From the NCBI GenBank assembly GCA_946535705.1, contig CAMNDT010000005.1, positions 6,616 to 70,615 of the forward strand: 64,000 bases of DNA, in the 5' to 3' direction. The position numbers and the translations under genes are program-made. Shown piece after piece: positions 386-56,347 of this stretch. Origin of the DNA: an uncultured Prevotella sp. GTDB lineage: Bacteria; Bacteroidota; Bacteroidia; Bacteroidales; Bacteroidaceae. How positions within the stretch are numbered: the first letter of the stretch is position 1; each line of letters starts with the position of its first letter. The notes beneath the pieces were generated by a model, which was not told where the DNA came from, did no database searches, and was given only the letters and a program-made list of their open reading frames with translations.

Positions 386-1213
386 ATGCTGAGATTTATC
401 TCTTTTGGAAGTGGCAGTAGTGGAAACTGTTACTATATATATACTGACACCGATAGTCTGATGATAGACGTAGGAATAGGTATTCGTACTCTTAAAAAAC
501 ATTTAAAGAACTATGGCATCAAGCTAACAGATATTCGTCATCTGCTTATTACGCATGATCATGCCGACCATGTGAAATCCATTGGAAGTTTAAGTACCGA
601 TATGACCTTGCCTGTGTATTCAACAAGCAAGGTACACGAAGGTATTAACAACAACCTTAGCGTAAGAAAGAAAGTAAATCCTTCAAATGTTAAGTTTGTT
701 GAGAAGAATACTACTACCAAGATTGGAGAATTTGTGGTTACACCTTTTGGCGTTCCTCATGACAGTTTGGACAATGTGGGATATAAAATAGAATGTGAAG
801 GTGTTGTTTTTGTATTAATGACTGATATTGGTCATGTTACAGATGAAATGAAAGAATTCATTGGCGAAGCAAACTATCTCGTAATAGAAGCCAACCACGA
901 TGACGAAATGCTTGCACATGGTCCTTATCCTCAACACCTTAAGGTACGAATATCTGGACCAAATGGTCATCTAAGCAACAAAGAATGTGCTATTGCTATT
1001 GCCGAAAACGCATCTCCTGCTTTGAAACATGTTTGGTTATGCCATTTGAGCGAGGAGAATAACCACCCAGTCCTTGCCGAAAAAACTATAGAACAAGTAT
1101 TACGCTCCTATGGTTTGGTTGTGGGAAAGGACTTTAATGTTGAAGTTTTAAGACGCAAGATTCCAAGTGGACCATATAGTTTATGCGCGGCAAAGCCGCT
1201 AAATGATAAATGA
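386..1213 (+). CDS. MBL-fold metallo-hydrolase (YycJ/WalJ-like)
   Basis: SGSSGN N-terminus, THDHADH metal motif, EANHD, GHLSN, HLSEENN; start moved to ATG 386. Confidence 0.85.
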   Translation: MLRFISFGSGSSGNCYYIYTDTDSLMIDVGIGIRTLKKHLKNYGIKLTDIRHLLITHDHADHVKSIGSLSTDMTLPVYSTSKVHEGINNNLSVRKKVNPSNVKFVEKNTTTKIGEFVVTPFGVPHDSLDNVGYKIECEGVVFVLMTDIGHVTDEMKEFIGEANYLVIEANHDDEMLAHGPYPQHLKVRISGPNGHLSNKECAIAIAENASPALKHVWLCHLSEENNHPVLAEKTIEQVLRSYGLVVGKDFNVEVLRRKIPSGPYSLCAAKPLNDK

Positions 1214-1280
1214 CAAATTATAGATGATAAAGAGAAGCGCAAAGCGCTAAACAAATAACGCCTTATTTTATTTTTGTCCC

Positions 1281-1361
1281 TTATCGGAATTTTCTGAATT
1301 ATCGGAACATTCAGAATTATCGGAATAATCGGAACATTCAGAATAATCGGAATTTTCAGAA
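1281..1361. repeat. 9-bp tandem array, 9 units with a TCNGA core
   Basis: ttatcggaa ttttctgaa ttatcggaa cattcagaa ttatcggaa taatcggaa cattcagaa taatcggaa ttttcagaa. Confidence 0.9.
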
Positions 1362-1375
1362 TTTAAGGAATAGAG

Positions 1376-1413
1376 AAAAGCCCCTTGCAGTTTTCGTCTG
1401 CAAGGGGCTTTTT
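1376..1413. terminator. bidirectional intrinsic terminator
   Basis: AAAAGCCCCTTGCAG-ttttcgt-CTGCAAGGGGCTTTT between convergent genes. Confidence 0.85.
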
Positions 1414-1439
1414 GCTTTATCATTTAGCAAAACGCTAAT

Positions 1440-3659
1440 CTAAAATGGCAATCCTACAGCAAAATGGAACGTGAAGTCACGACTCAATTTTGGATTAACT
1501 ATAGCCCAATGTTCTTCATCTGTTTCGTATGCAGGATTAATGGCTTTCATACCCATATCAAAACGCAGGATGAAGTAGTCAAAGTTAAGTCTCAATCCAA
1601 GGCCATACGAAACTGCTATCTGCTTATAGAACTCATTAAGTTTGAATTGTCCACCTGGTTGCTCTGCATAATTACGCAACGTCCAGATGTTTCCTGCATC
1701 AATAAACGCAGCTCCATCAAATTTCCAAAACAGCTTTGTTCTATATTCCATATTCATATCGAGCTTCATATCACCCGTTTGATTAATGAAATCTATACGT
1801 CCATCAGTACCTCTGAAGCTACCAGGTCCAAGCCCTCTTACACTCCATCCTCTCACACTATTAGCTCCACCTGAGAAATAGCGCTTTTCAAAAGGAAGAA
1901 TTGTACTATTTCCGTATGGCCATGCAACTCCAAAACCAACATGAGTAGCCAATGAGTTATTGGAATCAAACTGAAACAGATGTGTGTAGTCGAAATCAAA
2001 CTTCACATATTGTGCGTATGCGATATTCAGAAAAGTATATTGCCCGTTGGAATTTCTATGAAATCCCATTCCATGCGCCAAGCTATTAAGTATGTTGCCT
2101 GATGTTTCCACATTTGCCTTTAGAGCATCAGAACTGGTGTTATATGACATTCCGAAACCTATTTTCATTATGAACAGGTCCTCATAATTATACCTAAGAA
2201 TAGCGTTCCTATTGTTTTCGCTATCAAGATAATCATGCTTGAATGTTTCACTTATCCAAGGCATATAGACATAGTTCATATCAAGCAGATCGAGACGGAA
2301 ATTCAGATGATGCCCCACGTCGCTCCATCTATATCGCCAAGCAGCCGAAAACACTCTACGATGAAATTCGGGTCGGTTCTGCATATTGTATCCTGCAGAA
2401 AGCTCTGATGTGGCATTACTCCTGCGAACAAAAGCTCGTGAAAGCAATGGGGCAAGAAATCTTGGGAATTGCAGCTTTCCTTCTATATTATATTCCACAT
2501 AGTCTTGATTCTGGTAGCCTTCAAGTCCTTTAATTGCTTCAAACGCTCCACGCAATTGAATGCTAAGCAATTCTGAGCCACGAAAGAGATTACGGTTTTC
2601 GTATGTAAGAGTGGCTGCAGCGCCCAAATCTCCAGCCGTGTTAGTTCCTTCTGGCTGAAAGGAAAGCATGTTGGGCTTGTTGGTGCTCACTTGAATATTG
2701 CAATCAAGAAGATTGCTGTTTGGTACTTCGGCGAATGTAATATTTGTATATCTGATAGCCCCAAGACGTGCAAACTTGTTATAGGTTTGCTGAAGCGCTT
2801 TGTTGTTAAAATACTGTCCTTCCTCAAAAACCGTTGCATTTTCAAGAACCTTCTTTCTAAAAGGAATGCCTGAAGATTCTCCGCCAATATATTTTATGCG
2901 CCTGATAGTGTAACGCGGATGTTCTGTTGCCGGCGAAGAACTGCTTGCGCGATATTTATAAAGGTTCAGTACGATATTTATCTTATTATCATATACAGAT
3001 GAATCGGCACTAAACTGTATGTAATCCTTGTGGAAGCGATAAAACCCTCGTTCAAGCAGATAACTTGTAATTCTTTTGCGTTCTAAATCCAACGCATCAA
3101 CAGTAAATCGGCTTCCCTTTCTAAGTTGTGGGACAAAAGTATCACCTTTTCCTCCAATATTCAACAGCTTTGCTACAGCTGAATCCTCTATATTGTAACG
3201 TATGTTGTCGATATAATACGGAATACCAGGATTAAGGTGATAAATCGCCTTGATACCTTTCCCTCTCACCTTTGTTTCTAAGTTTACCGACGAATGAATG
3301 TAGCCCATGTTTTGCATGGCATTCTTTAAATCTACGCACGACAGATTTGCTTGAACGGTATCGTATATAACAGGCTTTTCACCAATACTTTTCAAAGTTT
3401 TGTTAATCCATTTTGTAGTATCCGTACCCGCCAAAGCATACGTACCAAGAGGTATCTTGAAGAGAGAAAACCATTTGGAATTTGCCTTTTGACGAATATA
3501 ATCTTTCAGGGTACTCGGATCTAATTCTTTAGAATCTGTTTTCACTTCTACACTTTTGAGGATGTAGTGTCCATCCTCAACAAACTTTGATGCGCTACAT
3601 GAAGCTAAAACGCACGAAGCAAGAAACAAATATATAATAATATTCCTATTTAATTTCAT
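1440..3659 (-). CDS. Omp85/BamA-TamA family outer-membrane lipoprotein (TamL-like)
   Basis: LASC lipobox, POTRA-like N-terminus, GGANSVRGW motif, C-terminal FHFAVGLPF beta-signal. Confidence 0.85.
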   Translation of the reverse strand: MKLNRNIIIYLFLASCVLASCSASKFVEDGHYILKSVEVKTDSKELDPSTLKDYIRQKANSKWFSLFKIPLGTYALAGTDTTKWINKTLKSIGEKPVIYDTVQANLSCVDLKNAMQNMGYIHSSVNLETKVRGKGIKAIYHLNPGIPYYIDNIRYNIEDSAVAKLLNIGGKGDTFVPQLRKGSRFTVDALDLERKRITSYLLERGFYRFHKDYIQFSADSSVYDNKINIVLNLYKYRASSSSPATEHPRYTIRRIKYIGGESSGIPFRKKVLENATVFEEGQYFNNKALQQTYNKFARLGAIRYTNITFAEVPNSNLLDCNIQVSTNKPNMLSFQPEGTNTAGDLGAAATLTYENRNLFRGSELLSIQLRGAFEAIKGLEGYQNQDYVEYNIEGKLQFPRFLAPLLSRAFVRRSNATSELSAGYNMQNRPEFHRRVFSAAWRYRWSDVGHHLNFRLDLLDMNYVYMPWISETFKHDYLDSENNRNAILRYNYEDLFIMKIGFGMSYNTSSDALKANVETSGNILNSLAHGMGFHRNSNGQYTFLNIAYAQYVKFDFDYTHLFQFDSNNSLATHVGFGVAWPYGNSTILPFEKRYFSGGANSVRGWSVRGLGPGSFRGTDGRIDFINQTGDMKLDMNMEYRTKLFWKFDGAAFIDAGNIWTLRNYAEQPGGQFKLNEFYKQIAVSYGLGLRLNFDYFILRFDMGMKAINPAYETDEEHWAIVNPKLSRDFTFHFAVGLPF

Positions 3660-3690
3660 TTTCAAACTATCAGCAATTGGGTTGCTGATG

Positions 3691-3750: not shown

Positions 3751-3770
3751 CATATATAAACTAACAAGGA

Positions 3771-5429: not shown

Positions 5430-6506
5430 ATGAAACCACAAAAAATACTCTTTATTGATCGCGACGGCACACTTATCGAAGAACCCGAAGACGAGCAGAT
5501 TGATTCATTTGACAAACTGAAATTCATCGAAGGAATGTTCCATAATTTAGCCTTCATCCGCAATAATCTCGACTTCAAATTCGTAATGGTAAGTAATCAG
5601 GATGGACTTGGCACCAGCTCTTTCCCAGAAGATACATTCTGGCCTGTACACAACTTTATCCTACAAAGCCTAAAAGGCGAAGGAATAGAATTCGACGACC
5701 AACTTATAGACCGTCATTTCCCTGAAGACAACTCCCCTATGCGCAAGCCAGGAACAGGCATGCTGAAGGAATACATTGACAACCCAGCTTATGATATAGC
5801 AGGAAGCTATGTGATTGGCGACCGAGAAACCGATGCCCAACTAGCAGAAAAACTTGGATGCAAAGCTCTCATTCTCGGCAAAGACGGAATGACATGGGAT
5901 AAGATTGCCGAAATACTCTTTGCAGGTGAGCGCATATCAGAGATTCACCGAGTAACAAAGGAAACTGATGTTTACGTGAAGCTAAACCTTGACGGCACTG
6001 GCAAATGTGATATCTCTACCGGCCTTGGCTTCTTTGACCACATGCTCGAGCAGATAGGCAAACATGGCATGATGGACCTCACCATTCACACAAAGGGCGA
6101 TCTTGAAGTGGACGAACATCACACAATCGAGGACACAGGTATAGCCCTTGGAGAATGCATTCTTGAAGCATTAGGCAACAAACGCGGTATTGAACGCTAC
6201 GGATACTGCTTGCCTATGGACGATTGTCTCTGTCAAGTAGCACTCGATTTCGGAGGTCGTCCATGGCTTGTATGGAACGCCGAATTCAATCGTGAGAAAA
6301 TAGGCGAAATGCCAACCGAGATGTTCCTTCATTTCTTTAAGAGTCTAAGCGACTCTTCAAAGATGAATCTCAACATAAAGGCAGAAGGCACCAACGAACA
6401 CCACAAGATAGAAGGCATATTCAAAGCTCTTGCTCGCTCGCTCAAAATGGCCGTTCGCAGAGACATCTATCACTTCGAACTACCTTCAACTAAAGGAAAA
6501 CTATAG
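5430..6506 (+). CDS. hisB: bifunctional histidinol-phosphatase/imidazoleglycerol-phosphate dehydratase
   Basis: HAD motif FIDRDGTL; IGPD motifs DEHHTIED and NEHHKIE. Confidence 0.95.
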
Positions 6507-6511
6507 TTAAT

Positions 6512-6600
6512 TGGGAATTAATAATTCAAAATTAATTAATTTTTAATCGCCCATTCGGGCGACTAATTCCAAATTCCACATTCGTAATTCGTAATTCCCA
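6512..6600 (+). repeat. heptamer-armed hairpin cassette (AATTCGT family)
   Basis: TGGGAATTA...TAATTCCCA termini, central TCGCCC-attc-GGGCGA hairpin, ATTCGTA repeats; related to 56216-56347. Confidence 0.75.
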
Positions 6601-6673
6601 CTCTTCTCGTTAAATCTTATTAAAGTTTCTATATTTTTCCTTTAATTCTCTTTTACACCTCATAAATATTTAG

Positions 6674-6763
6674 TAACTTTGCGCCCGATTTAGTCCGTGG
6701 AGGCTCGAATAAGTGCTGACAAAAGTCAGTCGCCTTGCGGAAAAACCCGTTTAAATAATTAAA
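6674..6763 (+). promoter_or_regulatory. -7 promoter box plus structured 5' leader of rplU-rpmA
   Basis: TAACTTTG at 6674-6681; CCGTGGAGGC/GCCTTGCGG stem enclosing CTGAC-aaaa-GTCAG. Confidence 0.55.
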
Positions 6764-8835: not shown

Positions 8836-8842
8836 TCCCTCC

Positions 8843-8987
8843 CCCCAAGGAAGATTGAAAAATTGAAAGATTGAACAATTGAACAATTGAACCGTAGGTC
8901 ACTGACCTCCGATTATTCAGAATACTCTGATTATTCCGAATTCTCCGATTTCTCCGAAAAACTTTAATTTTTCCATCTTTCTTGGGG
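8843..8987 (+). repeat. repeat cassette with ~26-bp terminal inverted repeats enclosing 8-mer repeats, a GGTCA-C-TGACC palindrome and a 9-mer array
   Basis: CCCCAAGGAAGATTGAAAAATTG vs TAATTTTTCCATCTTTCTTGGGG; 6 TCNGA 9-mers at 8907-8960. Confidence 0.8.
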
Positions 8988-12950: not shown

Positions 12951-13057
12951 TTCCTCTCGACTTTTCATAACTCTGCCCTCTAAGCGCAAAGTTGCTTTAT
13001 CTCGGCAAAAAAGAAATAAATTTCTTTGTTTTGCTCTCGACTTTTCGTAACTTTGTG
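12951..13057 (+). repeat. ~80-bp repeat unit ending in a -7 promoter box
   Basis: CTCTCGACTTTTCRTAACTYTG at 12954 and 13034; internal A/T hairpin; same family as 41468-41720. Confidence 0.8.
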
Positions 13058-16979: not shown

Positions 16980-16990
16980 AATAAACAGAA

Positions 16991-17053
16991 TAGTCGGAGT
17001 ATTCGGAGTATTCGGATTATTCCGATTATTCAGATTATTCCGATTACTCAGAA
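16991..17053. repeat. 9-bp tandem array, 7 units with a TCNGA core
   Basis: tagtcggag tattcggag tattcggat tattccgat tattcagat tattccgat tactcagaa. Confidence 0.9.
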
Positions 17054-17062
17054 ATAAACAAT

Positions 17063-17101
17063 AAAAAAAATCCCTGTCCTCCATTTGGAGAACAGGGATT
17101 T
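17063..17101. terminator. bidirectional terminator
   Basis: A8-TCCCTGT(C)CTCCA-tt-TGGAG(A)ACAGGGA-TTT between convergent genes. Confidence 0.8.
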
Positions 17102-18519: not shown

Positions 18520-20223
18520 TTATTCCATTCCGTTGTCGGAGATAATACTAATCAAATAGCCTTCGCTTGTTTCACAAATAGTATTACCACTCTTATCTAC
18601 GAATTTTTTTAGTTTACCTTTAAATACAACGAAATCGCCTTTTTTAAGGGTCTTATTGCCATCTACCCAAGGTTCATTTCCAAAGTATTTAATCTTGTAG
18701 CCTTCGAATTCGTGAACGTAATCCTTATCTACATGAGAGCCATCGGCAGATATCCAGAAATTAGCTGTGCCATGGACAGCGTCAAATTGATTCTGTACCT
18801 TACTAATCTTACCCTCAATATAAACTTCATCTGTAGAACCTGCATTAACAGCCTTTATTGCTGCAATTGCATCGTATGGATTAGCTTCTGTTCCATCACC
18901 ATAGTTAGCAAAGCTGTAAACATAACCACCATCAGTTTGAGGAGTGCCTTTGTACACCTTTACCTTAGCCCAGACAACAACTTCCTGACCTACAGTTACC
19001 TGATGATTGCCTTCAACCCATGCCTGATTACCAAGTGTCTTAGCACTATAAACTTCGAAATCCTTAGTATAATCCTTCTCATGATATTCTCCATCAGAAG
19101 AAATCCAGAATACAGCAGTACCCTTATCAGCATTATATGCCTTTTCTACCTTGGAAACAATACCCTTGATATAAACCTCCTTTACAGAACCATCAGCGTT
19201 TGCCTTTGCAAAAGCAATTGCTTCTTTTACTGTGAATGGAAGTTCGAGAGTACCTGTTGCACCTTCCTGGGTTACCTTTGCCTTACCCTTATATTTATCG
19301 CCATCCTTAACGGTTGTGAATACGAGTTCAGCACTACGAGCAGCAGCTTCGTTCTTAGCAGCATGTACAGTAACAACAGTCTCGTCACCAACAACCTTGA
19401 TAGACTTCAGTGAAAGCCACTCCTGATATTCAGCAGGAATCTCAGCCTCTACAGAACCAGTCTTAGTTGTGATGTAGATTTCGGCATCACCACCGTCAGA
19501 TGGAATAGCAGCATCCTTAACGCCATCAACCATAACAGAGTCAACCTTGATAAGAGACTTAGTTACACTAATGATAGTACCATTCTCAATCTCAGTAGAT
19601 CCATTATAGGTCTTCTTAGGACCTTCAACAGTTACTTCATCACCAGCCTCAATAGAGAAGTCCTTGAAGTTTGTAGTACCATAAATCTGGAAGCTACCAG
19701 TTGCATCTTCGATATACCAGTTACCATATTTTGTCCATTCAGTAACCTTCTGTACAGTACCAGTAACACGGTAAGTCTTAGCATCAGGACCTTCAATAAC
19801 TTCCTTACAAGTAGCGTTAGAAATTGTAGCAACACCCTGAATTACATTGATATGTTTCTTCTCATTACCACAAGTAAGAATTAGTTCGGTAGAACGCCCC
19901 TCACCTGCACCATAATGAAGTATAATCTTTTTAGCATCACTGTTACCAACTAACGATTTTTCATTGTATCTTTCAGAGTTTCCAACAGGCTTACTCTCGT
20001 CAACAACAAAACCAAGCCATTTAGAAGCAGTATCACTCTTAGCTACGGTCCAATCACCATTAACATTGATAGACAACTCTGTTTCTCCGCCATTCTCAGA
20101 AAGAGATACGTAAGATGTTGAAACCTCAATGTTTCCAAGTGGGAAATTATAATCATTTTCTGAACAACTCACAAAAGAAGTGAGCAGAGCCAGAAGTGAA
20201 GGAATGATATATTTAAGTTTCAT
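18520..20223 (-). CDS. surface lipoprotein with BACON-like and repeated OB-fold-like domains
   Basis: FVSC lipobox; YRVTGTV..YGNWYIEDATG..GDEVTVEG; two GTxxxP[FY] + VYIxGxxS repeats. Confidence 0.7.
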   Translation of the reverse strand: MKLKYIIPSLLALLTSFVSCSENDYNFPLGNIEVSTSYVSLSENGGETELSINVNGDWTVAKSDTASKWLGFVVDESKPVGNSERYNEKSLVGNSDAKKIILHYGAGEGRSTELILTCGNEKKHINVIQGVATISNATCKEVIEGPDAKTYRVTGTVQKVTEWTKYGNWYIEDATGSFQIYGTTNFKDFSIEAGDEVTVEGPKKTYNGSTEIENGTIISVTKSLIKVDSVMVDGVKDAAIPSDGGDAEIYITTKTGSVEAEIPAEYQEWLSLKSIKVVGDETVVTVHAAKNEAAARSAELVFTTVKDGDKYKGKAKVTQEGATGTLELPFTVKEAIAFAKANADGSVKEVYIKGIVSKVEKAYNADKGTAVFWISSDGEYHEKDYTKDFEVYSAKTLGNQAWVEGNHQVTVGQEVVVWAKVKVYKGTPQTDGGYVYSFANYGDGTEANPYDAIAAIKAVNAGSTDEVYIEGKISKVQNQFDAVHGTANFWISADGSHVDKDYVHEFEGYKIKYFGNEPWVDGNKTLKKGDFVVFKGKLKKFVDKSGNTICETSEGYLISIISDNGME

Positions 20224-23803: not shown

Positions 23804-23858
23804 CATGCTACTACTATACTACAACTATACTACAACTATACTATAACTATACTACAAC
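23804..23858. repeat. 11-bp tandem array (CTATACTACAA), left arm of a long inverted repeat
   Basis: 23804-23836 matches the reverse complement of 25611-25643 at 31/33 positions. Confidence 0.9.
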
Positions 23859-24139
23859 AAGGTTTTGTGTTCGAGTGTGTAATTCGCTGATTTTGGTTGT
23901 CAGTTTTCTGTCTGATGACTGTTCCAGGTTGACGGGTTAATATTATACGACTAATTCTCGTTGTCAGCCGTCTGCGATACGACTGTTTTTTGTTTACTCT
24001 GAATGCCGAATCAGAACTTGCGGTTAGCCTCAGTCCAGTGGCCACCTATGCTCTAAGAGACTGAAGTTCAAGCGTCTTTGTTTGTTCCGACACTGTTGCC
24101 GTAGCTTTGGCTTGCCGCAGCAAAGATACGTATTTTCTT

Positions 24140-25063
24140 TCATATAGCCGTTGCTTTCTGTCTTTTTATTGCATCTTCGCGCCATGAGTGCCAATGACGC
24201 TTCATCTCGCCCTGCATAGCGTGTGCTTCGTCTGGCGTATGATAGTCGATGCTGCTGTGAGGACGCTCTTTGTTATAGAAAAGAACAGCCTTCTTTACGG
24301 CCTCCGTCACCTGTTTGATACCGGTAAACGTATGACCATAAAGCAGTTCGTTCTTGACGGTACTGTTGATACGCTCAGCCATTGCGTTGTCCTTCGGGTT
24401 GCCGCTCTCAGTCATGCTTGGCGTGATATGAGAGCGTGTTAACACTTTGATGTAGTCGGCACTGGCGTACTGGCAGCCACGATCTGAGTGATGGATGAGT
24501 GTCTCGTCAAAGCCTTCTGGCAGTGTACCAATGGCCATTCTCAGAGCCTTGATGCAGTAAGCCGTCTCAAGTGTGGGAGCCACATACCAGCCTACAATGC
24601 GCTTGCTGTAGGCATCCATTATAATTGTAAGGAAGCAGAAACGATAGCCCAAATGGGTTGTAGGGTCCTCGATAGGAATATAGGTGATGTCACTGACCCA
24701 TATCTGGTTGGGACGCATCGGTATCACGTTCTTCACGAGGTTCGGATAGACGGGCAGGTTGTGACGCGAGTCGGTAGTGCGGGTAGCACGCTTGCGCTGA
24801 CGAACATTCAGCCCGCGCTCGTGCAGGATGCTACGGAATGCATCACGCCCTACACGGTACTCCTCGCTGAAACGGTTCTGATACATGCGCCATAGGTTGT
24901 CGGCTCCCATCTGGGGATCCTTCTCCCTAACGCTGCGAACGAACTGAACCACAAACTGCTCCAATGTCAGACGGCGGAACAGTAGGTCGTCATCATGCTT
25001 GTAAAAGGCCTGTCGTGATACACCGGACAGTGCACAGAGATTCGTGACGGCATAATGCCTCAC
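24140..25063 (-). CDS. IS3 OrfB DDE transposase
   Basis: WVSDITY, HHSDRGCQY, DNAMAERINSTVKNE, YNKERPHSSI. Confidence 0.95.
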   Translation of the reverse strand: MRHYAVTNLCALSGVSRQAFYKHDDDLLFRRLTLEQFVVQFVRSVREKDPQMGADNLWRMYQNRFSEEYRVGRDAFRSILHERGLNVRQRKRATRTTDSRHNLPVYPNLVKNVIPMRPNQIWVSDITYIPIEDPTTHLGYRFCFLTIIMDAYSKRIVGWYVAPTLETAYCIKALRMAIGTLPEGFDETLIHHSDRGCQYASADYIKVLTRSHITPSMTESGNPKDNAMAERINSTVKNELLYGHTFTGIKQVTEAVKKAVLFYNKERPHSSIDYHTPDEAHAMQGEMKRHWHSWREDAIKRQKATAI

Positions 25064-25470
25064 TTCGTCTTCATGCAGCCTTTTGACTGCCCGGTGCCAG
25101 CTTTTTTTCGTATTTCGATGTTGAACATCTCCTCTGCAACGTCCACCATCGTGTCATAGAAGTCGGCACGCATTGTTTCCTGATGTAGTTTCTTCTTCAG
25201 CTCCAAAATCTCTGCACGCAAGGCTTTGATTTCCTCTGCTTGATTGTCTGTTGGGGTATTCTTCATAAGCAGCGCACTTTTATCATTAGACGCTGCAAAG
25301 ATACGAATAATTCTGCTTACAGACTGTTGGGATATACCATATTGTTTGGCTATTTGACATTGGTCAATTCCATTCAGCAAATAATCACGCACTACTTCTA
25401 ACTTTAATTCTTCTGACAAACGGAAGCAAGAACGCTTACGTTTGGGTTTTGAAACTTTGTTATGAATCAT
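25060..25470 (-). CDS. IS3 OrfA (HTH and coiled coil)
   Basis: IAKQYGISQQSVSRII HTH; A7 slippery run at 25102-25108 joins OrfB in the -1 frame. Confidence 0.85.
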   Translation of the reverse strand: MIHNKVSKPKRKRSCFRLSEELKLEVVRDYLLNGIDQCQIAKQYGISQQSVSRIIRIFAASNDKSALLMKNTPTDNQAEEIKALRAEILELKKKLHQETMRADFYDTMVDVAEEMFNIEIRKKAGTGQSKGCMKTK

Positions 25471-25526
25471 TTTTAGTTGACTTTGTGTCAACCTGATTCA
25501 GCGTAAGACAGTGATGTGCGATTGAA

Positions 25527-25593
25527 GTCCGTTTGTTGTCCGTTGTATGAACGGACAACAAACGAACAACAAACGGACAACAAACGGACAACA
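25527..25593. repeat. 11-bp repeat hairpin (AACGGACAACA x4 plus an inverted copy)
   Basis: GTCCGTTTGTTGTCCGTT-gtatg-AACGGACAACAAACGAAC... Confidence 0.9.
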
Positions 25594-25610
25594 ATGGGAG
25601 GAAGAATATG

Positions 25611-25643
25611 GTTGTAGTATAGTTGTAGTATAGTTATAGCATG
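25611..25643. repeat. right arm of the 11-bp-unit inverted repeat
   Basis: GTTGTAGTATAGTTGTAGTATAGTTATAGCATG. Confidence 0.9.
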
Positions 25644-25676
25644 AGAATAACATATTCACCATTGCCTTTTTAGGCA

Positions 25677-31998: not shown

Positions 31999-32045
31999 AA
32001 AAACTAATAAGTATCAACTGGCCAAAAATAGCCCTGTTGATAAAC

Positions 32046-32114
32046 AAAAAAATTGATTGTCTCACGACAACCAATCTTTTATTAACCTTAATAATCTAAT
32101 ACCATGAAAAACAC
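32046..32114 (-). ncRNA. candidate stand-alone small RNA (~70 nt)
   Basis: -7 box TATCTTTG (32119-32126), then GTGTTTTTCATGGTATTAGATTATTAAGGTTAA, then ATTGGTTGTC-gtga-GACAATCAAT-T-run terminator. Confidence 0.65.
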
Positions 32115-32798: not shown

Positions 32799-32871
32799 AT
32801 TCTGCAAATATACAACTATTTTCTTTACCGACAAAGAATTATTAGTTTTAAGTTTTTATCCAGAATCAAAT

Positions 32872-33026
32872 GTTTTTTATCTCGAATGAGTTTTTTTTAT
32901 CTCGAATGAGTTTTTTTATCTCGAATGGGTTTTTATCTCGAATTAGAGAATTAGAGAATTTTTGCTTCGCCTTGCTGTACACTGCCTGTAACATAAACCA
33001 ATTCTCTAATTCTCTAATTCGAGATA
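32872..33026. repeat. 4x TTTTTATCTCGAAT followed by a perfect 27-bp inverted repeat of AATTAGAG octamers
   Basis: TATCTCGAATTAGAGAATTAGAGAATT (32934-32960) / AATTCTCTAATTCTCTAATTCGAGATA (33000-33026), 39-nt loop. Confidence 0.9.
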
Positions 33027-33111
33027 TAAAGAAAAGAACTACGAGACAAAAGAAAAAATCTATGAGAGACCAAAAAGTAAAGTCTTTTCTTAACTCTTAT
33101 TCTTTTACATT

Positions 33112-41294: not shown

Positions 41295-41400
41295 AGAGTT
41301 GGAAGATTGGTGATTTAGTAGATTAGTGGTTTAGTAGATTAGTAGATTGGGAGATTGGAACATTGAACATTTACATATTCCAAGTTATTGTTTAGTTTAT
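41295..41400 (+). repeat. 8-bp degenerate tandem array (GATTAGTA-type) starting at the dcu stop codon
   Basis: gattggtg atttagta gattagtg gtttagta gattagta gattggga gattggaa. Confidence 0.75.
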
Positions 41401-41409
41401 TAGTTTAAC

Positions 41410-41441
41410 AAAACGGGGTGGCATAAAGCACCCCGTTTTTT
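41410..41441 (+). terminator. intrinsic terminator
   Basis: AAAACGGGGTG-gcataaag-CACCCCGTTTTTT. Confidence 0.85.
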
Positions 41442-41467: not shown

Positions 41468-41720
41468 TTACTTTGGCTTCGCCGAAGATACAATGCACTC
41501 GGAAAAGCGCAAATAAATTTGGCTTTCCTCTCGTTTTTTAGTATCTTTGCGCTCCAAGGGTGCGAAGTTACTTCGTTTCGGCATAAAAAAAAGAATGAAT
41601 TCTTTTTGTTCTGCACTCAACTTTTCGTAACTTTGGCACTTTGCCGAATTTACTTCGTCTCGGAAATGAAAATAAAAGCAAGCTTTAATTTTGTATTTCT
41701 CTCGACTTTTCGTAACTTTG
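41468..41720 (+). repeat. three tandem 74-86-bp units, each ending in a -7 promoter box
   Basis: TATCTTTG 41542, TAACTTTG 41628, TAACTTTG 41713; units run CGAAGTTAC..TCGG-[A/T hairpin]-CTC..TTTT.GTAACTTTG. Confidence 0.85.
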
Positions 41721-41754
41721 CCGGGAAAAAGAAAAAATCAACATATATATAAAT

Positions 41755-43967: not shown

Positions 43968-43992
43968 TAGATCTCACTTCGTTCGCTCAATT

Positions 43993-44640
43993 AATAATGA
44001 GTAGCTAATAATGAGTAATGAGTAATGAGTAATGAATTATGAATGAAAATGAAAGTTAGTAATGAATAATGAAAATTATTATTGACGAATAGAGCTTATA
44101 TTTAGAAAGCAACAATTACCCAATAATGAAAAATGAGTAATGTTTCCATTACTCATTTTTCATTTAAAACGAATAATAAAATGAAAAACATAATACTTGA
44201 AAAAACAGAAGAATTTGGAAAGAAAATATCTCGTCTTAATATTTATCTGATAAAAAAGAAACACGAATATACACGATCAGACCAAATATTAAGAAGTGGA
44301 ACAAGTATAGGTGCAAATGTAACGGAAGGTACTTACGCTCAATCACATGCGGATTTTATCAGCAAAATGAGCATTGCATTCAAAGAGGCTCAAGAAACAA
44401 AATATTGGCTTAATATATTGTATGATTCACAGTTTATTACAACAGACGAATATACCTCATTATTGAATGACAATATGGACATAATAAGAATATTAGCCAG
44501 TATTCTCAAATCAGCCAAAAATAAAAGCGAAAAAAAATAATGAGTAACGGTCTCTCCCCCATTACCCATTATTCAATATAAATTAACTAAAAGCGCTGCG
44601 CACTTCATTACTCATTACTCATTATTCTTTACTCATTATT
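43993..44640 (+). mobile_element. putative cassette: four-helix-bundle gene between inverted AATGAGT heptamer arrays
   Basis: Left arm 43993-44036 vs right arm 44604-44640 (~37-bp IR, 3 mismatches plus one extra unit); inner hairpins 44125-44164 and ~44536-44573. Confidence 0.65.
44181..44540 (+). CDS. four helix bundle protein (TIGR02436 / 23S rRNA-IVP family)
   Basis: QILRSGTSIGANVTEG..AQS.ADFISKMSIAFKEAQETKYWL signature; visibly AT-richer than neighbours. Confidence 0.92.
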   Translation: MKNIILEKTEEFGKKISRLNIYLIKKKHEYTRSDQILRSGTSIGANVTEGTYAQSHADFISKMSIAFKEAQETKYWLNILYDSQFITTDEYTSLLNDNMDIIRILASILKSAKNKSEKK

Positions 44641-44658
44641 ATAATATCGGATTCGATA

Positions 44659-45003
44659 TTATAATCTGTTGTTTTCTTTTGGAAAAACAATACTTGGCTT
44701 AAAGCTCTTTGCATCTTCGAAATCCATAATGGCATAAGAGATGATTATCACAGTGTCTCCAACAAGCACTTGACGTGCAGCTGCACCATTAAGGCAAATG
44801 CAACCTGAGCCTCTCTCTCCTGCTATAATATAAGTTTCAAAACGATTGCCATTATTATTATCCACAATCTGCACTTTCTCGCCAGCAATCATGTTGGCTG
44901 CATCAAGAAGGTCTGCATCAATAGTGATGCTACCCATATAATTAATGTTTGCCTCTGTTACAGTGGCACAATGAATCTTACTTTTTAATACCTCTATCTG
45001 CAT
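44659..45003 (-). CDS. panD: aspartate 1-decarboxylase
   Basis: [13 protein letters not shown] (G-S self-cleavage), RFETY, LNGAAAR. Confidence 0.96.
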
Positions 45004-48761: not shown

Positions 48762-49328
48762 ATGCGTACAGACAAAGAACTAGAATGGAATACTATCGAA
48801 GAAAAGTACCTGATTAAAAGACGCTGGCTAACAGCAAAAGTGGAAAAGGTGCAACTCCCCGACGGACGAATATATGATGAATACTACACTTTAGAATATC
48901 CTGACTGGATAAACGTGATAGCCATTACCAAAGATGGAAAGATGATCCTTGAGAAACAATGGCGACATGCCCAACGAGTTGTTTCTACAGAAATTCCTGC
49001 TGGAGTAATAGAAAAAGGAGAAGAACCATTAGCAGCAGCAAAGCGTGAGCTACAAGAGGAAACTGGTTTCGGTGGAGGAACATGGAGCGAGTTTATGGTT
49101 CTATCGCCTAATCCTGGCTCTATGAATAACCATAGTCACACATTTTTGGCAGAAGGGGTAGAAAAGATTTCAGACACACACCTTGACGAAACAGAAGACA
49201 TTGAAGTGTTTTTCCGCTCACAGGAAGAGGTTTACGAAATGTTAAAGAACGGAGAATTCTGTCAGGCTCTCATGGCAGCACCTCTATGGAAATACTTTGC
49301 GACAAAAAAAATTGTTGATCAGCATTGA
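48762..49328 (+). CDS. NUDIX hydrolase (ADP-ribose pyrophosphatase-like)
   Basis: Nudix box GVIEKGEEPLAAAKRELQEETG. Confidence 0.92.
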   Translation: MRTDKELEWNTIEEKYLIKRRWLTAKVEKVQLPDGRIYDEYYTLEYPDWINVIAITKDGKMILEKQWRHAQRVVSTEIPAGVIEKGEEPLAAAKRELQEETGFGGGTWSEFMVLSPNPGSMNNHSHTFLAEGVEKISDTHLDETEDIEVFFRSQEEVYEMLKNGEFCQALMAAPLWKYFATKKIVDQH

Positions 49329-50427: not shown

Positions 50428-51399
50428 CTATTCCTGAGCACCTCCTGCAAGATCGAGGAGTTCGTTTGTGATTGCAGCCTGGCGGCTCTTGTTGTATTCA
50501 AGATTGAGTGTTCGCAAGAGTTCGTCGGCATTATCGGTAGCTGTTTGCATAGCAACCATCCGGGCTGCATGCTCAGAAGCGATACTGTCGAGAAGTGCAG
50601 TATAAACCATCAGTCTTAACAATTTTGGAACAAGAGAATTCAAAACAGTGTTAAGATCTGGCTCAACAATAAAATCGTCGTTGAGCATAACTCCTTTAAC
50701 ACCATTCTTTTTCTCAGCCTCTTCCTGTTTGCGACGCAGGTATTCTTGTGCTTTGGCTGTAGCAACATTACTTGTGAGGTCACGGTCGTTGTCCTGTCCA
50801 ATAGTTTCTGTAGAAAGATCTATTGGGAGCAGAGTCTTACGAGTAAGAATCTGCGAACCAGCACTCTTGAAGTGATGATAGATAAGCTCTACCTTTGAGA
50901 GTTTGCCTGCAAGAAATTGTTCACCAAGTTCATGAGCAATCTGGCGACAGCCTTCAGCATTTGGTTTATCAGCAAGTTCTGCAAAAGAACCAGCTACAGT
51001 AAATCCTTCCTTGCGAGCCTTCTCTTCAACTTTTCTTCCAACAGGATAAATAACAATATCGTCGATACCCTGAGCCTTGTATTCAGCAACTATCTCGAGC
51101 ATCATCTTAATAGTGTTGTTATTAAATCCGCCACAAAGCGAACTATTGGAAGTATATACAACCAAGGCTACACGCTGAGACTTTCCATGCACACTCTCGT
51201 AAGGACTATTGGTTTCTGGAGTAGAAATCAAAAAGCTCTTGAGGATATGTTCCAACAGATTTTCGTATGGCAACATATTCTGTATGGCAGTCTGGGCATG
51301 ATGAAGTTTCGATGACGCCACCATTTTCATAGCACTCGTAATTTTACGTGTGCTATTAACAGAAGCTATTCGAGTCTTTATCTCTTTTAATGAAGCCAT
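50428..51399 (-). CDS. atpG: ATP synthase F1 gamma
   Basis: KITSAMKMVA, SEHAARMVAM, RQAAITNEL. Confidence 0.96.
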   Translation of the reverse strand: MASLKEIKTRIASVNSTRKITSAMKMVASSKLHHAQTAIQNMLPYENLLEHILKSFLISTPETNSPYESVHGKSQRVALVVYTSNSSLCGGFNNNTIKMMLEIVAEYKAQGIDDIVIYPVGRKVEEKARKEGFTVAGSFAELADKPNAEGCRQIAHELGEQFLAGKLSKVELIYHHFKSAGSQILTRKTLLPIDLSTETIGQDNDRDLTSNVATAKAQEYLRRKQEEAEKKNGVKGVMLNDDFIVEPDLNTVLNSLVPKLLRLMVYTALLDSIASEHAARMVAMQTATDNADELLRTLNLEYNKSRQAAITNELLDLAGGAQE

Positions 51400-51412
51400 A
51401 ATAATTAATTTA

Positions 51413-51455
51413 GAATGTAGAACCAACGGTCACTGACCTAAGTGGTTCAACATTC
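51413..51455 (-). repeat. hairpin cassette with GGTCA-N-TGACC core between atpA and atpG
   Basis: Sense strand GAATGTTGAACCA-CTTA-GGTCAGTGACC-GT-TGGTTCTACATTC; core shared with 8887-8907. Confidence 0.7.
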
Positions 51456-51467
51456 ATCGTTCAAAAT

Positions 51468-53042
51468 TTACGCGAAGCACTGCTTTGCACATTCCTTAAT
51501 GCATTGTTCGGTCTCCTCGGTGAGCTTGCCGCTGGCAAGGGTATCAAGGATGTCTTGATGCTGTGTGCGCATAACTTCAAGGAACTGATCCTGACGCTTA
51601 CGCACCTCGGTAACAGGAACTGCATGCATGAGTCCGTTGACACCACAATACAAAATGGCAATCTGCTCGCCCACTGGCATTGGAGAATACTGTGGCTGAA
51701 TGAGCAACTGATTATTCTTTCTACCACGGTCGAGTGTCATTGCAGTCACAGCATCCATATCGCTGGCAAATTTAGAGAAACTCTCAAGCTCACGATACTG
51801 TGCCATATCTATCTTAAGTGTACCTGCTACTTTCTTCATACTCTTTACCTGAGCAGAACCACCTACACGAGATACAGAGATACCCACATTGATAGCAGGA
51901 CGGAATCCCTGATTGAAGAGATTACTCTCAAGATATATCTGACCGTCGGTGATTGAAATCACATTAGTAGGAATATAAGCTGACACATCGCCTGCCTGAG
52001 TTTCGATGATTGGAAGGGCAGTTAGAGAACCTCCACCCTTTACAAAAGGTTTCATGCTCTCAGGAAGGTCATTCATCTGCTCAGCTATTTCCTGCTGATC
52101 ATTTATACGTGCTGCACGCTCCAACAAACGAGAGTGGAGATAGAACACATCACCAGGATAGGCTTCACGACCTGAAGGACGACGCAAGATAAGCGACACT
52201 TCACGATATGCAACAGCCTGCTTTGAAAGGTCATCGTAAACAACAAGGGCATGATAACCACGATCGCGGAAATATTCGCCTATGGCAGCACCTGCAAATG
52301 GTGCATAATACTGCATAGCAGCAGGATCGGCAGCCGTAGCACTTACCACAATGGTATATGGCATTGCACCATGATCTTCAAGAGTCTGTACCAAAGAAGC
52401 TACAGTAGAAGCTTTCTGACCTATAGCAACATATATACAATAAACAGGCTTGCCTGCCTCGTAGTTTCCTTTCTGATTGATGATTGTATCAACTGCAACA
52501 GCAGTCTTACCTGTCTGACGGTCACCAATGATAAGCTCACGCTGTCCACGACCAATAGGAATCATTGAGTCAACAGCCTTAAGACCTGTCTGCAGTGGTT
52601 CCTTTACTGGCTGACGGTAGATAACTCCAGGAGCCTTACGGTCAAGTGGCATCTCTATAGCATCGGTAAGATTGATTTCGCCTTTACCATCAATAGCCTG
52701 CCCAATAGGATTGACAACACGACCAAGGAAATTGTCATTCACACGGATAGACGCTATTCGATGGGTGCGTTTCACTTTCTGGCCTTCCTTGATGCCCGCT
52801 GTAGAACCCATGATGACACAACCCACGTTATCTTCCTCAAGGTTCATGACAATAGCCATAGTGCCATTTTCAAACTCAAGGAGCTCGGAAGCTTCAACAT
52901 TGCGCAAGCCATACACGTGTGCCACACCATCGGCAACAGTAAGCACGGTACCTACCTCGTCGAACTGAGTCGCATCGTTGATGCCCTGAAGTTCTCGCTG
53001 AAGAACCTCAGACACTTCGCTTGGTTTTATTTTTTCTGACAT
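51468..53042 (-). CDS. atpA: ATP synthase F1 alpha
   Basis: [28 protein letters not shown]. Confidence 0.97.
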
Positions 53043-53049
53043 ATTATTT

Positions 53050-53583: not shown

Positions 53584-53589
53584 AAGCTT

Positions 53590-54096: not shown

Positions 54097-54141
54097 TCGC
54101 GCTGGTTTAAGTTAAATTCTATGTGAAATCTCACTCTATAA

Positions 54142-54396
<255 letters not shown>

Positions 54397-54426
54397 TTAA
54401 ATTATTATTGTTTTGTTCTTTTACAT

Positions 54427-55512: not shown

Positions 55513-55515
55513 ACC

Positions 55516-55941
55516 TTAATTATTACGTTTTTGTTTCTGTTTCTCTACAAAGGAGAAGAACATTGTTTCAAACATAAGCGAACTAATATAGAACAATGCG
55601 AAAGTGATGACAAAGCCAAGCATCACATTTTTTCTATCATAAAGAACAAACATGCCGGCAATAACTACAATAAGAGCAAGCAACATTCGGATAGTGCCAC
55701 ATGCCATATAATAGCGCCCCATGATGTTTGGCGAATGAAGAGCTATTGCCCGCCATGCCATGATAGAGAAACGGTTCACAACCAGTTGATATACGCTGCA
55801 GAAACCTACACTATAGATGTGGTCGGTGAGATCTCCTAAATGCACCAGAAGGAAACCAATAAGTGACATTCCACATACTATCCATAACGAAATCAATTGA
55901 TAACGCTTTACAATACGCTTGATTCGTTGTTCTCTATCCAT
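55516..55941 (-). CDS. 4-TM membrane protein in atp operon (AtpI-like position)
   Basis: Four hydrophobic helices, immediately before atpB. Confidence 0.7.
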   Translation of the reverse strand: MDREQRIKRIVKRYQLISLWIVCGMSLIGFLLVHLGDLTDHIYSVGFCSVYQLVVNRFSIMAWRAIALHSPNIMGRYYMACGTIRMLLALIVVIAGMFVLYDRKNVMLGFVITFALFYISSLMFETMFFSFVEKQKQKRNN

Positions 55942-55965
55942 TTACGCCTTATTCTATTTATTAGA

Positions 55966-56205
55966 TTATACTTCTACACACACAGAAACCTCATTGCGCT
56001 TTACTTGTACAAAGCCTCCGAGAATATCTATGCGCTGTTCACCTTCTTTTGTTTTATATTTCACACACCCCTTCTCAAGACTTGAAATTATTGGCGCATG
56101 ATCAACGAGAATCTCAAACTCTCCTAATGTACCAGGAACAGTTACGCTTTCGACCTCGCCATGGTAAACCACCTTTTCTGTTGAAACTATCTTTAGTACT
56201 AACAT
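55966..56205 (-). CDS. atpC: ATP synthase F1 epsilon (N-terminal domain only)
   Basis: GEFEILVDHAPIIS, GGFVQV; 79 aa. Confidence 0.93.
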   Translation of the reverse strand: MLVLKIVSTEKVVYHGEVESVTVPGTLGEFEILVDHAPIISSLEKGCVKYKTKEGEQRIDILGGFVQVKRNEVSVCVEV

Positions 56206-56215
56206 AATTGTTAAT

Positions 56216-56347
56216 GTGGAATTACGAATTACAAATTACGAATTGGTCGCCCTTTGGCGATGAAAATTTATATAATTACAAATTCCTAATTCCAAACTCG
56301 TAACTCGCAATCAAATTAATTTCTAATTACAAACTCGTAACTCGTAA
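56216..56347 (-). repeat. heptamer-armed hairpin cassette between atpD and atpC
   Basis: Sense strand: TTACGAG repeats from the atpD stop, TCGCC-aaag-GGCGA hairpin, then AATTCGT repeats. Confidence 0.85.

Follow-up and report, generated by a model that had tools for sequence, protein, structure and literature searches.

Why do spacers behind housekeeping genes of a Prevotella chromosome contain short tandem repeats arranged as long hairpins, and how are these related to a cassette in the same DNA in which similar repeats bracket a gene? We addressed this question for a stretch of 64,000 nucleotides (nt) from an uncultured Prevotella sp. (GenBank assembly GCA_946535705.1, contig CAMNDT010000005.1, positions 6,616 to 70,615), hereafter the window. 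It is a Prevotella-type chromosome segment of ~41% G+C that carries hisB, rplU-rpmA, serS, fabD, rplI-rpsR-rpsF, valS, a dcu transporter gene, mmdA/mmdC, panCD, the atp operon, pfkA and pyk. A sequence-only reading of this DNA had listed eight spacers free of open reading frames (ORFs) as resembling the arms of a cassette that encodes a four-helix-bundle protein. We find that these spacers, together with at least one more location outside that list, harbor intergenic elements of a single class: long, imperfectly paired hairpins, each with two arms formed by inverted arrays of 7-11 nt units. Whichever strand is read, the G-rich arm is the 5' one, and many elements have a small GC hairpin at their tip. 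The core intuition of the sequence-only reading was partly right, in that these elements and the arms of the cassette are alike in kind, and the notion of the cassette can be generalized. The main addition of the present analysis is that the arms belong to the element of the PF05635 gene across five phyla. We put the probability that the ORF-less hairpins are gene-less relatives of a selfish cassette resembling the intervening sequences (IVSs) of rRNA at roughly one half.

The gene of the cassette (44181-44540) matches TIGR02436 (95 bits against a cut-off of 24, E 2.9e-27) and PF05635, "23S rRNA intervening-sequence protein" (88.1 bits, cut-off 33.8), and the closest solved structure to its product is PDB 2RLD (E 3.3e-30). 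It is flanked by arrays of TAATGAG units and their complement, 37-38 nt long and 89-92% complementary, and two extra hairpins built of TAATGAG-type units bracket the ORF (hairpin z -8.1). The ORF-less elements do resemble these arms, being inverted arrays of short units with the G-rich arm 5', located just past a stop codon. On the minus strand, the segment 44535-44574 reads as a 16-pair hairpin of cassette units followed by a T run, overlapping the stop of the four-helix-bundle ORF; it could act as a terminator for panCD transcripts that enter the cassette from the right.

The same architecture surrounds homologs of this gene in distant bacteria. A tblastn search of the PLSDB plasmids with the cassette protein returned 33 records, 12 of which were picked for taxonomic spread before their flanks were seen (L081-L092, from Treponema, Bernardetia, Chondrinema, Monoglobus, Chlorohelix, Dolichospermum, Anabaena, Euhalothece, Planktothrix and three Nostoc, spanning Spirochaetota, Bacteroidota, Cyanobacteriota, Bacillota and Chloroflexota). 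At all 12 loci, inverted arrays of short tandem units flank the PF05635 gene; the units are heptamers for the most part and are different at each locus. In all 12, too, the gene occupies the spacer that separates a pair of other genes, in many cases within an operon (hsdS-hsdR, cas1-cas2, adaptor and permease of a resistance-nodulation-division (RND) system, DrmD-MmeI, helicase-methylase). The 5' array begins within 10 nt of the end of the neighboring gene, or overlaps it, in 8 of the 12. In Nostoc punctiforme, a second annotated four-helix-bundle gene has arms of its own (GGGTGTG/ACACCCT). As a control, 40 kb were read around three of the plasmid homologs. In Bernardetia and Treponema, heptamer arrays of at least three copies were found only beside the four-helix-bundle gene, and the N. 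punctiforme context contained one lone heptamer array away from such genes (ATACTTA, 3.4 copies). The cassette of the window and its copy in the nearest relative of the window, discussed below, share the armed architecture as well. Given the 12 armed plasmid loci of 12 and the additional N. punctiforme copy, the arms belong to the element of the gene in cellular replicons of five phyla, and the inverted-array architecture is a cross-phylum hallmark of PF05635/TIGR02436 genes. The plasmid-borne genes are wedged in defense and other operons, and some lie beside XisH/XisI or Tn7-like genes. A kinship of units with the Dolichospermum arms (TTACGAA/TTCGTAA and TTTGGAA, also at 6565-6600 and 56216) was considered and rejected, as it is not significant for units of such low complexity.

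Within the window, the arrays are concentrated in spacers. With Tandem Repeats Finder (TRF; score of at least 40, period 6-30), we identified 17 arrays in 6,681 bp of spacers versus 8 in the 57,319 bp that are coding. In the spacers that measure 40 nt or more, of which there are 31, we counted 16 arrays (825 bp), whereas 100 dinucleotide-preserving shuffles yielded 0.68 on average and never more than 3. Seven of the eight spacers of the original list yielded TRF arrays, the exception being 51413-51455. Inverted arms or hairpins had also been described for most of them, and, indeed, seven of the eight fold far better than shuffled sequences (z of -3.2 or lower), with at most one of 200 shuffles folding equally well. 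At 41295-41410, no significant hairpin was found (z -1.4 and -2.0), and this array is the weakest member of the class. ORFs that cross the arrays, including one of 107 amino acids (aa) across 32873-33067, match no Pfam or NCBIfam family, and an Rfam search of the elements at E up to 1 returned only sub-threshold, microRNA-like matches on perfect hairpins. Nor do the armed hairpins pass for intrinsic terminators, being A+T-rich and devoid of a T tail; the atp operon contains two of them, and separate terminator-like hairpins are located downstream of the arrays at 1375-1413 and 17068-17101.

The observation that units differ between loci and yet recur at distant sites holds up. Most loci have a unit of their own, and a few units recur at two or three loci in the 64 kb. 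Units of 7 nt occur at 1200, 6565, 43989, 44605 and 56219, and units of 8, 9 and 11 nt in other arrays. The 9-mer family TCSGAWTWW is found at three loci (1291-1351, 8908-8939 and 17015-17054; 85-87% identity over 32-40 nt), GGAATTACGAATTAC at both 6584 and 56218, and GGTCACTGACCT at both 8897 and 51428. The small GC tip hairpins were located at 1236-1248, 6547-6562, 8897-8907, 51428-51438 and 56247-56260; these are 11-16 nt long, and each recurs only twice in the window, TCGCCC...GGGCGA at two loci and GGTCACTGACC at two. The similarity between loci is short or partial (12-40 nt), with no conserved palindrome common to all copies. The element behind hisB, however, aligns over 88 nt with the atpD-atpC element of the nearest relative (71.6% identity, E 1.3e-6), in the same orientation relative to the upstream gene.

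The comparison with this relative links the ORF-less elements to the cassette most directly. An AtpA search of genome contigs provided 80 Prevotellaceae loci (1.45 Mb; denoted by L-numbers), among which the closest to the window by AtpA is L034, an uncultured Prevotella with 99% protein identity, followed by Segatella albensis (93%) and S. bryantii (91%). L034 is a metagenome-assembled genome that aligns with positions 42000-62900 of the window only. Over this range, the identity is ~81% of alignment columns, on a DNA background of ~87%, with genes at 79-93% and most spacers at 53-92%; a hypothetical ORF at 55516-55941 is only 59% identical. Segments of 142 nt that are at least 99% identical occur in three places only, namely 44147-44682, 51344-51566 and 56198-56374, and these three islands coincide with the cassette and with both ORF-less elements that the two genomes share. 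When the two large elements are set aside, only 0.42% of 19,546 segments reach 99%, all of them at the third element. The cassette with its arms is 97.8-99% identical between flanks of 84-90%; the atpD-atpC element is identical in 141 of 142 nt, compared to 85-88% for atpC and atpD; and the atpA-atpG spacer is identical in 41 of 41 positions, its hairpin (100% identical) lying inside an island of 223 nt at 99% or more. Because the only such stretches are the cassette and the ORF-less elements, the two share a behavior that ordinary spacers do not show.

The four-helix-bundle gene itself is identical in 403 of 408 positions, so that structural constraint alone cannot explain the identity, and its synonymous sites are conserved too, for which reason we read the islands as recent shared ancestry. 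They may reflect the passage of entire elements from one lineage to another, with recombination through the flanking genes as the route. The elements also differ by presence and absence between the two genomes: L034 carries extra ones, not found in the window, in the atpE-atpF (+94 nt) and atpH-atpA (+132 nt) spacers. The two cassette copies are distinguished by an indel of one 7-nt unit and by an inverted 4-nt loop (TTTC/GAAA at 44143-44146). This loop is the tip of the perfect 18-bp hairpin upstream of the ORF and lies in a 99% identical tract; its inversion is a single flip at the DNA level or a template-switch event. In the L034 copy (~19165-19450), a 1-nt insertion splits the ORF, which makes it either a pseudogene or an assembly error.

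Table 1. Repeat-armed elements of the window (positions in the window; z, fold relative to shuffled sequences)
Element	Coordinates	Strand	Setting	Units and arms	Predicted fold
Composite ORF-less element	1196..1430		Between a metallo-beta-lactamase (MBL)-fold gene (+, stop 1211-1213) and tamL (-)	Outer inverted arms GCTAAATGATAA (from ~1198) and TTATCATTTAGC (to ~1430); TAAATGA array 1200-1231 overlapping the stop codon; GC hairpin 1236-1248; 9-mer array TCGGAATWW 1281-1364; terminator-like hairpin 1375-1413	1190-1440: outer arms pair, -73.7 kcal/mol, z -6.3 (figure includes the terminator)
ORF-less hairpin	6512..6600	+	6 nt past hisB stop	A/T-rich arms; GTAATTC and AATTCCA units on 3' side; tip hairpin TCGCCCATTCGGGCGA at 6547-6562	6507-6610: z -4.1 and -4.4 on the two strands; antisense stabler (-29.5 vs -20.8 kcal/mol)
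ORF-less element	8843..8987	+	Behind serS stop	Outer arms 8845-8866 with 8963-8985; ATTGAACA array 8854-8892; small hairpin GGTCACTGACC 8897-8907; TCCGATTAT-type 9-mers 8907-8958	8840-8985: z -4.3 sense, -3.2 antisense; antisense stabler by 5.4 kcal/mol (-42.0 vs -36.6)
ORF-less hairpin	16991..17053	+	12 nt past stop of flavodoxin-like gene; terminator-like hairpin 17068-17101 downstream	5' arm with TCGGAGTAT units, 3' arm with TCCGATTAT/TCAGATTAT units	16980-17060: + strand -30.4 (z -6.9), - strand -20.5 kcal/mol
Inverted 11-mer array pair	23804..25653		Encloses IS3-family transposase genes	CTACAACTATA at 23804-23858, complement at 25607-25653; inner hairpin of AACGGACAACA units 25509-25596	
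Arrays and stem	32873..33067		Spacer separating valS from a divergent - strand gene that starts at 32834	20-mer array containing AATGAGT, then GAATTAGA; near-perfect stem of 27-31 bp, 32930-32960 with 33000-33030, 97% complementary	32925-33030: 27-bp perfect stem, z -7.7 and -9.3
G-rich tandem units	41295..41407	+	Directly past dcu stop	GATTAGTA-like 8- and 16-mers	
ORF-bearing cassette	43989..44641	+	Gene with probable start 44181, stop 44538-44540	TAATGAG/AATGAAT array on the left, 43989-44076; perfect 18-bp hairpin made of these units, 44125-44164; second hairpin of left-array units 44535-44574; right array TCATTAC 44604-44641	
Plain 42-nt hairpin	51415..51456	-	atpA-atpG spacer	No tandem units; GGTCACTGACC at tip	51400-51470: z -3.4 and -4.7
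ORF-less element	56206..56347	-	Fills atpD-atpC spacer	TTACGAG and GAATTAC units; tip hairpin TCGCCCTTTGGCGA at 56247-56260	56206-56347: mRNA strand -41.5 (z -6.2), other strand -24.0 kcal/mol

The inverted 11-mer pair at 23804-25653 is the member of the class that was absent from the original list. It encloses the orfA/B genes of an IS3-family transposase on the minus strand (24140-25491; NF033516, E 5.7e-69), and the ends of this insertion sequence (IS), placed by eye, are at ~23867 and 25527. It looks as though the IS3 element inserted into an already existing armed hairpin, as some IS3-family elements do with repetitive extragenic palindromic (REP) sequences.

Where do these elements lie relative to genes? 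Seven of the eight listed spacers start within 15 nt of a stop codon, in agreement with the original description, whereas the one at 32872-33026 is not behind a stop, as it occupies a divergent spacer and adjoins a start codon. In a census of the window and the 80 loci, based on crude calls of ORFs that span 110 aa or more, spacers accounted for 115 of the 191 arrays: 88 co-directional, 20 convergent and 7 divergent. Co-directional, convergent and divergent spacers account for 74%, 12% and 14% of the spacer bp, respectively, so that the divergent ones hold 6% of the arrays in 14% of the sequence. Of the 88 co-directional arrays, 64 lie closer to the stop of the upstream gene than to the start of the downstream one, and the reverse holds for 24; 28 arrays begin no more than 23 nt from the stop. 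The array bias towards gene 3' ends is therefore real, but the targeting of 3' ends that had been proposed is not needed to account for it, since spacers are short and there is no room for disturbance of promoters or translation starts: with ancestral spacers of 5-35 nt, any surviving insertion must lie near a stop.

The polarity of the arms is equally regular. The G-rich arm comes first in 12 of 13 four-helix-bundle cassettes, in 8 of the 10 other window elements (one is neutral, and the IS3-containing pair is the only clearly C-first pair in the window), and in 17 of 19 cases in an automatic scan of the window and the 80 loci. The sequence-only reading had noted this order in the direction of transcription; the order stands, but it is uninformative on that direction because an inverted repeat with a G-rich left arm reads G-first on both strands. 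The polarity may be selected, given that a C-rich arm transcribed first would show Rho a G-poor unpaired stretch before its partner exists. Furthermore, a G/A/T-rich inbound arm with a 7-nt period may close all three frames within three units, as with TAATGAG. It had also been proposed that mismatches read as G-U pairs on the mRNA strand at 8843 and 56216 and that the elements are constrained at the RNA level. The former is borne out at 56216 but not at 8843, where the antisense strand folds better (Table 1), and the latter finds inconsistent support: among the ORF-less elements, those at 16980 and 56206 favor the mRNA strand (41295 weakly so) and those at 6507 and 8840 the opposite one, and the arm duplexes of the 13 cassettes favor sense in nine and antisense in four, a difference that is not significant, with the long-flank duplexes being messy.

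If the elements were landing sites that await cargo, or scars of cargo that was lost, orthologous spacers in related genomes should include filled ones. We found none among the 72 usable atpD-atpC and the 80 atpA-atpG spacers, the longest of which is 149 nt, and this contradicts the notion of landing sites. L041 (Prevotella falsenii) was dropped from the count because its apparent 629-nt "spacer" is atpD coding sequence; at ~6113-6754, its AtpD match is split by a frameshift or a sequencing error. For scars, there is no direct evidence either: neither phmmer nor a profile of 13 four-helix-bundle proteins run against six-frame fragments detected any four-helix-bundle remnant in the window and the 1.45 Mb beyond the gene of the window and its L034 ortholog, and a TRF-based scan of the 80 loci found no other cargo between inverted arrays.

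What the orthologous spacers do show is that they were occupied repeatedly by different elements. Most of the 72 atpD-atpC spacers are 5-60 nt long and free of repeats; three contain clear armed hairpins and two possible ones, with different units. L034 has the element of the window, L020 (139 nt, with GAGTTTTT) and L037 (88 nt) have armed hairpins with other units, and L006 and L078 have tandem units at the 5' end. The atpA-atpG spacer is ancestrally 5-6 nt, compared to 68 nt in the window and L034, which share the 42-nt hairpin. In three of the 80 (L008, L013 and L037), this spacer contains hairpins of GAGTTAGGA units, 78-149 nt long, and in L052 and L054 a plain GC hairpin. About 8% of the atpD-atpC spacers carry an element, which is close to the rate estimated for spacers generally in these loci from 0.12 arrays per kb, so there is no sign of a special target. 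In a blastn search with 12 element sequences, the only match among the 80 loci was in L034.

Taken together, these observations can be accommodated by the following scenario, in which the ORF-less hairpins are relatives of an IVS-like cassette. An element would occupy a transcribed spacer, usually just past a stop codon, this being the only harmless place for extra DNA in a compact operon. Its transcript would fold at once into a long stem, G-rich arm first, so that the flanking genes are left undisturbed, and the stem might either protect the 3' end of the upstream mRNA or, by analogy with the stems of rRNA IVSs, be cut by a double-strand-specific RNase; it is because of the IVS precedent (PMC4990558) that we infer cleavage by RNase III. 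At the DNA level, the arms would gain and lose units by slippage and would stay matched through arm-to-arm copying, by template switching or recombination within the hairpin, processes of which the unit indel and the loop inversion in the cassette would be direct traces. Whole elements would pass between related Prevotella genomes by recombination through conserved flanking genes, and would be gained and lost at individual spacers. The ORF-less forms would derive from, or depend on, the ORF-bearing cassette.

Several findings weigh against such a relationship. No cargo and no remnant of one were found in the ORF-less elements, so that their descent from a cassette is putative, and in the sampled Prevotellaceae DNA there are 115 spacer arrays against two four-helix-bundle genes (>100 to 1). 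The strand tests gave no consistent sign of selection on RNA, and no target duplications or shared termini were found at the junctions, either in comparison with L034 or with species that have the ancestral 5-6 nt spacer. The arms are missing in both of two homologs on unverified phage contigs. The near-identity to L034 must be read with caution as well: L034 is metagenome-assembled, so that assembly effects are possible; tracts of at least 97% identity are also found in or across genes (49038-49319, 51029-51572 and 60260-60700), which suggests mosaic recombination between the two species beyond the repeat elements, so that the genomes are mosaic anyway; and the array at 62168-62208 is only 82% identical. 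Furthermore, species that are ~82% identical keep the type of unit, but not the array, at orthologous elements, which fits vertical descent with slippage. Finally, in L008, L013 and L037, the last codons of atpA together with its TAG stop (AAGAGTTAG) are the first unit (GAGTTAG) of the GAGTTAGGA array, and in species that lack this array, atpA ends differently; either the end of atpA served as the seed of the array, or it was replaced by the arm.

The last two points are among those expected under the main rival explanation, local growth, which we consider possible although on the unlikely side. On this account, long simple-sequence repeats arise in place by polymerase slippage just past stop codons, where duplications do no harm, unrelated to the four-helix-bundle gene, and the hairpins are kept since a stable stem protects or ends the upstream mRNA; around the gene, arrays grow as in any spacer, or else the gene inserts preferentially into existing hairpins like IS3. 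The best evidence for local growth is the atpA end, stop codon included, that doubles as the first repeat unit, and the TAAATGA array that overlaps the stop at 1211-1213 is a similar case. That units vary from locus to locus, that orthologous elements keep the unit and differ in copy number, that arrays vastly outnumber four-helix-bundle genes in Prevotellaceae and that IS3 sits inside one armed element all fit as well. REP sequences, too, are reportedly targets of IS elements, as Tobes and Pareja are said to have found in 2006. In addition, heptamer repeats are over-represented in some bacteria and their length varies between relatives (PMC4692102). Local growth leaves unexplained, however, why, in the three 40-kb contexts from other phyla, heptamer arrays occur almost only beside PF05635 genes, and why arms are present at all 13 chromosomal or plasmid homologs outside the window. 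Nor does it account for islands of 99-100% identity at exactly the three shared elements, where slippage-prone DNA should diverge faster, for the G-first polarity, or for the units and tip hairpins common to distant loci.

A more ambitious extension of the cassette relationship, which we regard as speculative and doubtful, is that PF05635 genes with their inverted arrays are the autonomous form of a cross-phylum mobile cassette, with intergenic heptamer arrays as the non-autonomous form. The latter would comprise the short tandemly repeated repetitive (STRR) sequences of cyanobacteria, the GGGAATC pairs of Xanthomonas, the TAACTGA arrays and the Prevotella hairpins described here. Given the constant polarity, reading either strand 5' to 3' leads from the flanking DNA inwards along the G-rich repeats, the outcome to be expected if repeats were added to both 3' ends of a break. 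In its boldest version, therefore, this proposal would have the arms originate not by slippage but by the templated addition of repeats, in which a reverse transcriptase would be helped by a four-helix-bundle protein of the Avd-like kind.

Far less probable is the explanation that the elements resemble MITEs (miniature transposable elements with inverted repeats) or REP sequences, that is, are non-autonomous elements moved in trans by a transposase encoded elsewhere in the genome, for example a hairpin-recognizing enzyme of the IS200 type, such as a REP-associated tyrosine transposase (RAYT), or of another IS type, with the four-helix-bundle gene as a passenger. The extragenic, 3'-biased position, the hairpin structure, the family members at several loci, the presence or absence of elements between sister species and the high-identity islands are all compatible with this possibility, and REPINs, hairpin-forming extragenic repeats, are moved by RAYTs (PMC3116915). 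Nevertheless, no conserved terminal sequence or target-site duplication was seen at the junctions, and the arms differ between loci, whereas a transposase needs a constant recognition site. Among the 57 proteins of the window, there is no RAYT or IS200-like gene, the sole transposase being that of IS3, itself inserted, and the elements of the window recur in none of the 79 loci other than L034.

We consider it slightly less probable still that the arrays are iterated sites for an RNA- or DNA-binding protein, possibly the pentameric four-helix-bundle protein itself, that would tune neighboring genes, with the hairpin being secondary. Heptamer arrays near genes have been proposed as sites for post-transcriptional regulators (PMC4679880), the units are regularly spaced, and the atpD-atpC and atpA-atpG elements occupy operon positions where the subunit stoichiometry changes. 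However, almost every locus has a different unit, and one binding specificity could not suit them all; the two arms are each other's complement and not copies of one sequence, an indication of pairing; and most relatives run the same atp operon with spacers of 5-35 nt. Chance, that is, structure perceived in the noise of low-complexity, A+T-rich spacers, might be suspected where the fold is no better than shuffled (41295) or where tandem units are missing (51413), but is refuted by the shuffling results for both arrays and folds.

A few other features of the window spacers deserve mention. An 11-mer array, TCTATATTTCA in 3.7 copies, occupies the convergent spacer past pyk (62168-62208); it forms no significant hairpin (z 0.6 and -0.9) and behaves unlike the armed elements. 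A match to FopS, a Bacteroidetes small RNA (sRNA) in Rfam, was found at 32043-32114 on the minus strand (78.2 bits, gathering threshold 56, E 8.7e-10), in the spacer downstream of a nucleoside permease gene; no rRNA was detected in the window by Rfam. The motif CTCTCGACTTTTCRTAACTYTGCC is common to 12954-12977 and 41699-41722 (and also occurs at ~41617-41640). It lies upstream of both fabD and mmdA and probably represents a promoter of the Bacteroidetes type (TAnnTTTG) that does not belong to the repeat elements.

The possible significance of these elements lies in the connection of two puzzles that are decades old, the genomes full of intergenic heptamer-type repeats and the identity of the widespread S23p/four-helix-bundle genes. 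The data tie the two together, in that the gene is bracketed by inverted arrays in five phyla, and gene-less versions, which behave like the gene-bearing cassette between sister species, are found behind housekeeping genes of Prevotella. If the link holds genome-wide, it would provide a testable origin for heptamer-type repeats, extend the IVS concept from rRNA to ordinary operons, and flag operon hairpins, such as those in atp, as possible sites of RNA processing or stabilization. In the open-access papers and bioRxiv, we found no paper that links PF05635 genes with heptamer-type arrays, although family annotations or subscription journals may note the link; matches to the names of the protein family were limited to texts related to diversity-generating retroelements (DGRs), a paper on rRNA insertion sequences in the candidate phyla radiation (CPR), and annotation tables.

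Among known systems, some of the more distant ones share individual traits with the elements described here. The small dispersed repeats (SDRs) of Nostoc, reportedly described by Elhai et al. in 2008, are said to be 21-27-nt hairpin elements nested in tandem heptamer repeats; they resemble the small GC tip hairpins, although the latter are only 11-16 nt long. The REP sequences, with the bacterial interspersed mosaic elements (BIMEs) and REPINs, of enterobacteria and Pseudomonas are extragenic hairpin repeats that lie behind genes or inside operons, are tolerated in transcripts, and form a conserved palindrome family moved by a RAYT (PMC3116915). They are also insertion targets of IS elements, as the armed element that contains IS3 appears to be. 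In contrast, the arms described here are unconserved tandem arrays, and no RAYT was found among the window proteins scanned. The BrickBuilt MITE of Porphyromonas gingivalis (PMC4596501) is likewise an intergenic Bacteroidales element with tandem repeats, long stem-loops and a position that is stable between strains, but it consists of one 23-nt direct repeat with a conserved leader and tail and IS5-like terminal inverted repeats, none of which is present in our elements.

The elements relate more closely to two known kinds, heptamer arrays and IVS elements. With the former, they share the intergenic location, arrays of ~7-nt units, a copy number that varies between relatives while the position is kept, inverted pairs that can form stem-loops, and an unexplained origin and function; moreover, the arms of the cyanobacterial cassettes analyzed here are arrays of the heptamer-repeat kind. 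The STRR of heterocystous cyanobacteria, heptameric tandem repeats, were reportedly described by Mazel in 1990. STRR are also mentioned in PMC4692102, which describes GGGAATC heptamer arrays in Xanthomonas, with 70-75 convergent pairs per genome, and states that, as of 2015, there was no detailed literature on bacterial heptamer repeats. TAACTGA arrays are found in Beggiatoaceae, cyanobacteria and Bacteroidetes (PMC4679880). The texts of these two papers contain no occurrence of "helix bundle", "S23" or "intervening sequence", and neither gives a mechanism. A difference is that the papers describe one dominant unit per genome, whereas here the unit differs between loci, 8-11 nt units are common, and the arms are paired and inverted.

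The IVS elements are the closest parallel. In PMC4990558, they are described as selfish elements whose complementary termini form a stem cut by RNase III, which occur sporadically at conserved sites, have been transferred horizontally between Leptospira species, and, in Coxiella, Leptospira and Brucella, carry the S23p ORF. Three differences stand out: the elements of the window lie between protein-coding genes rather than in a tetraloop of helix 9, 25 or 45 of 23S rRNA (or in 16S rRNA); their arms are arrays of short tandem units instead of unique inverted repeats; and ORF-less forms far outnumber the ORF-bearing one, with an RNase III cut being suggested by analogy. The short IVSs of other genera are not known to carry the S23p ORF. 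The likeness extends to the gene of the cassette, which belongs to the same protein family, PF05635; to the stem-forming complementary termini, with the complementarity of the cassette arms given above and folds of the ORF-less elements at z -3.2 to -9.3; and to an occurrence that is sporadic over conserved sites and bears signs of transfer among related species, in which the islands shared by the window and L034 echo the horizontal transfer of Leptospira IVSs as cited in PMC4990558.

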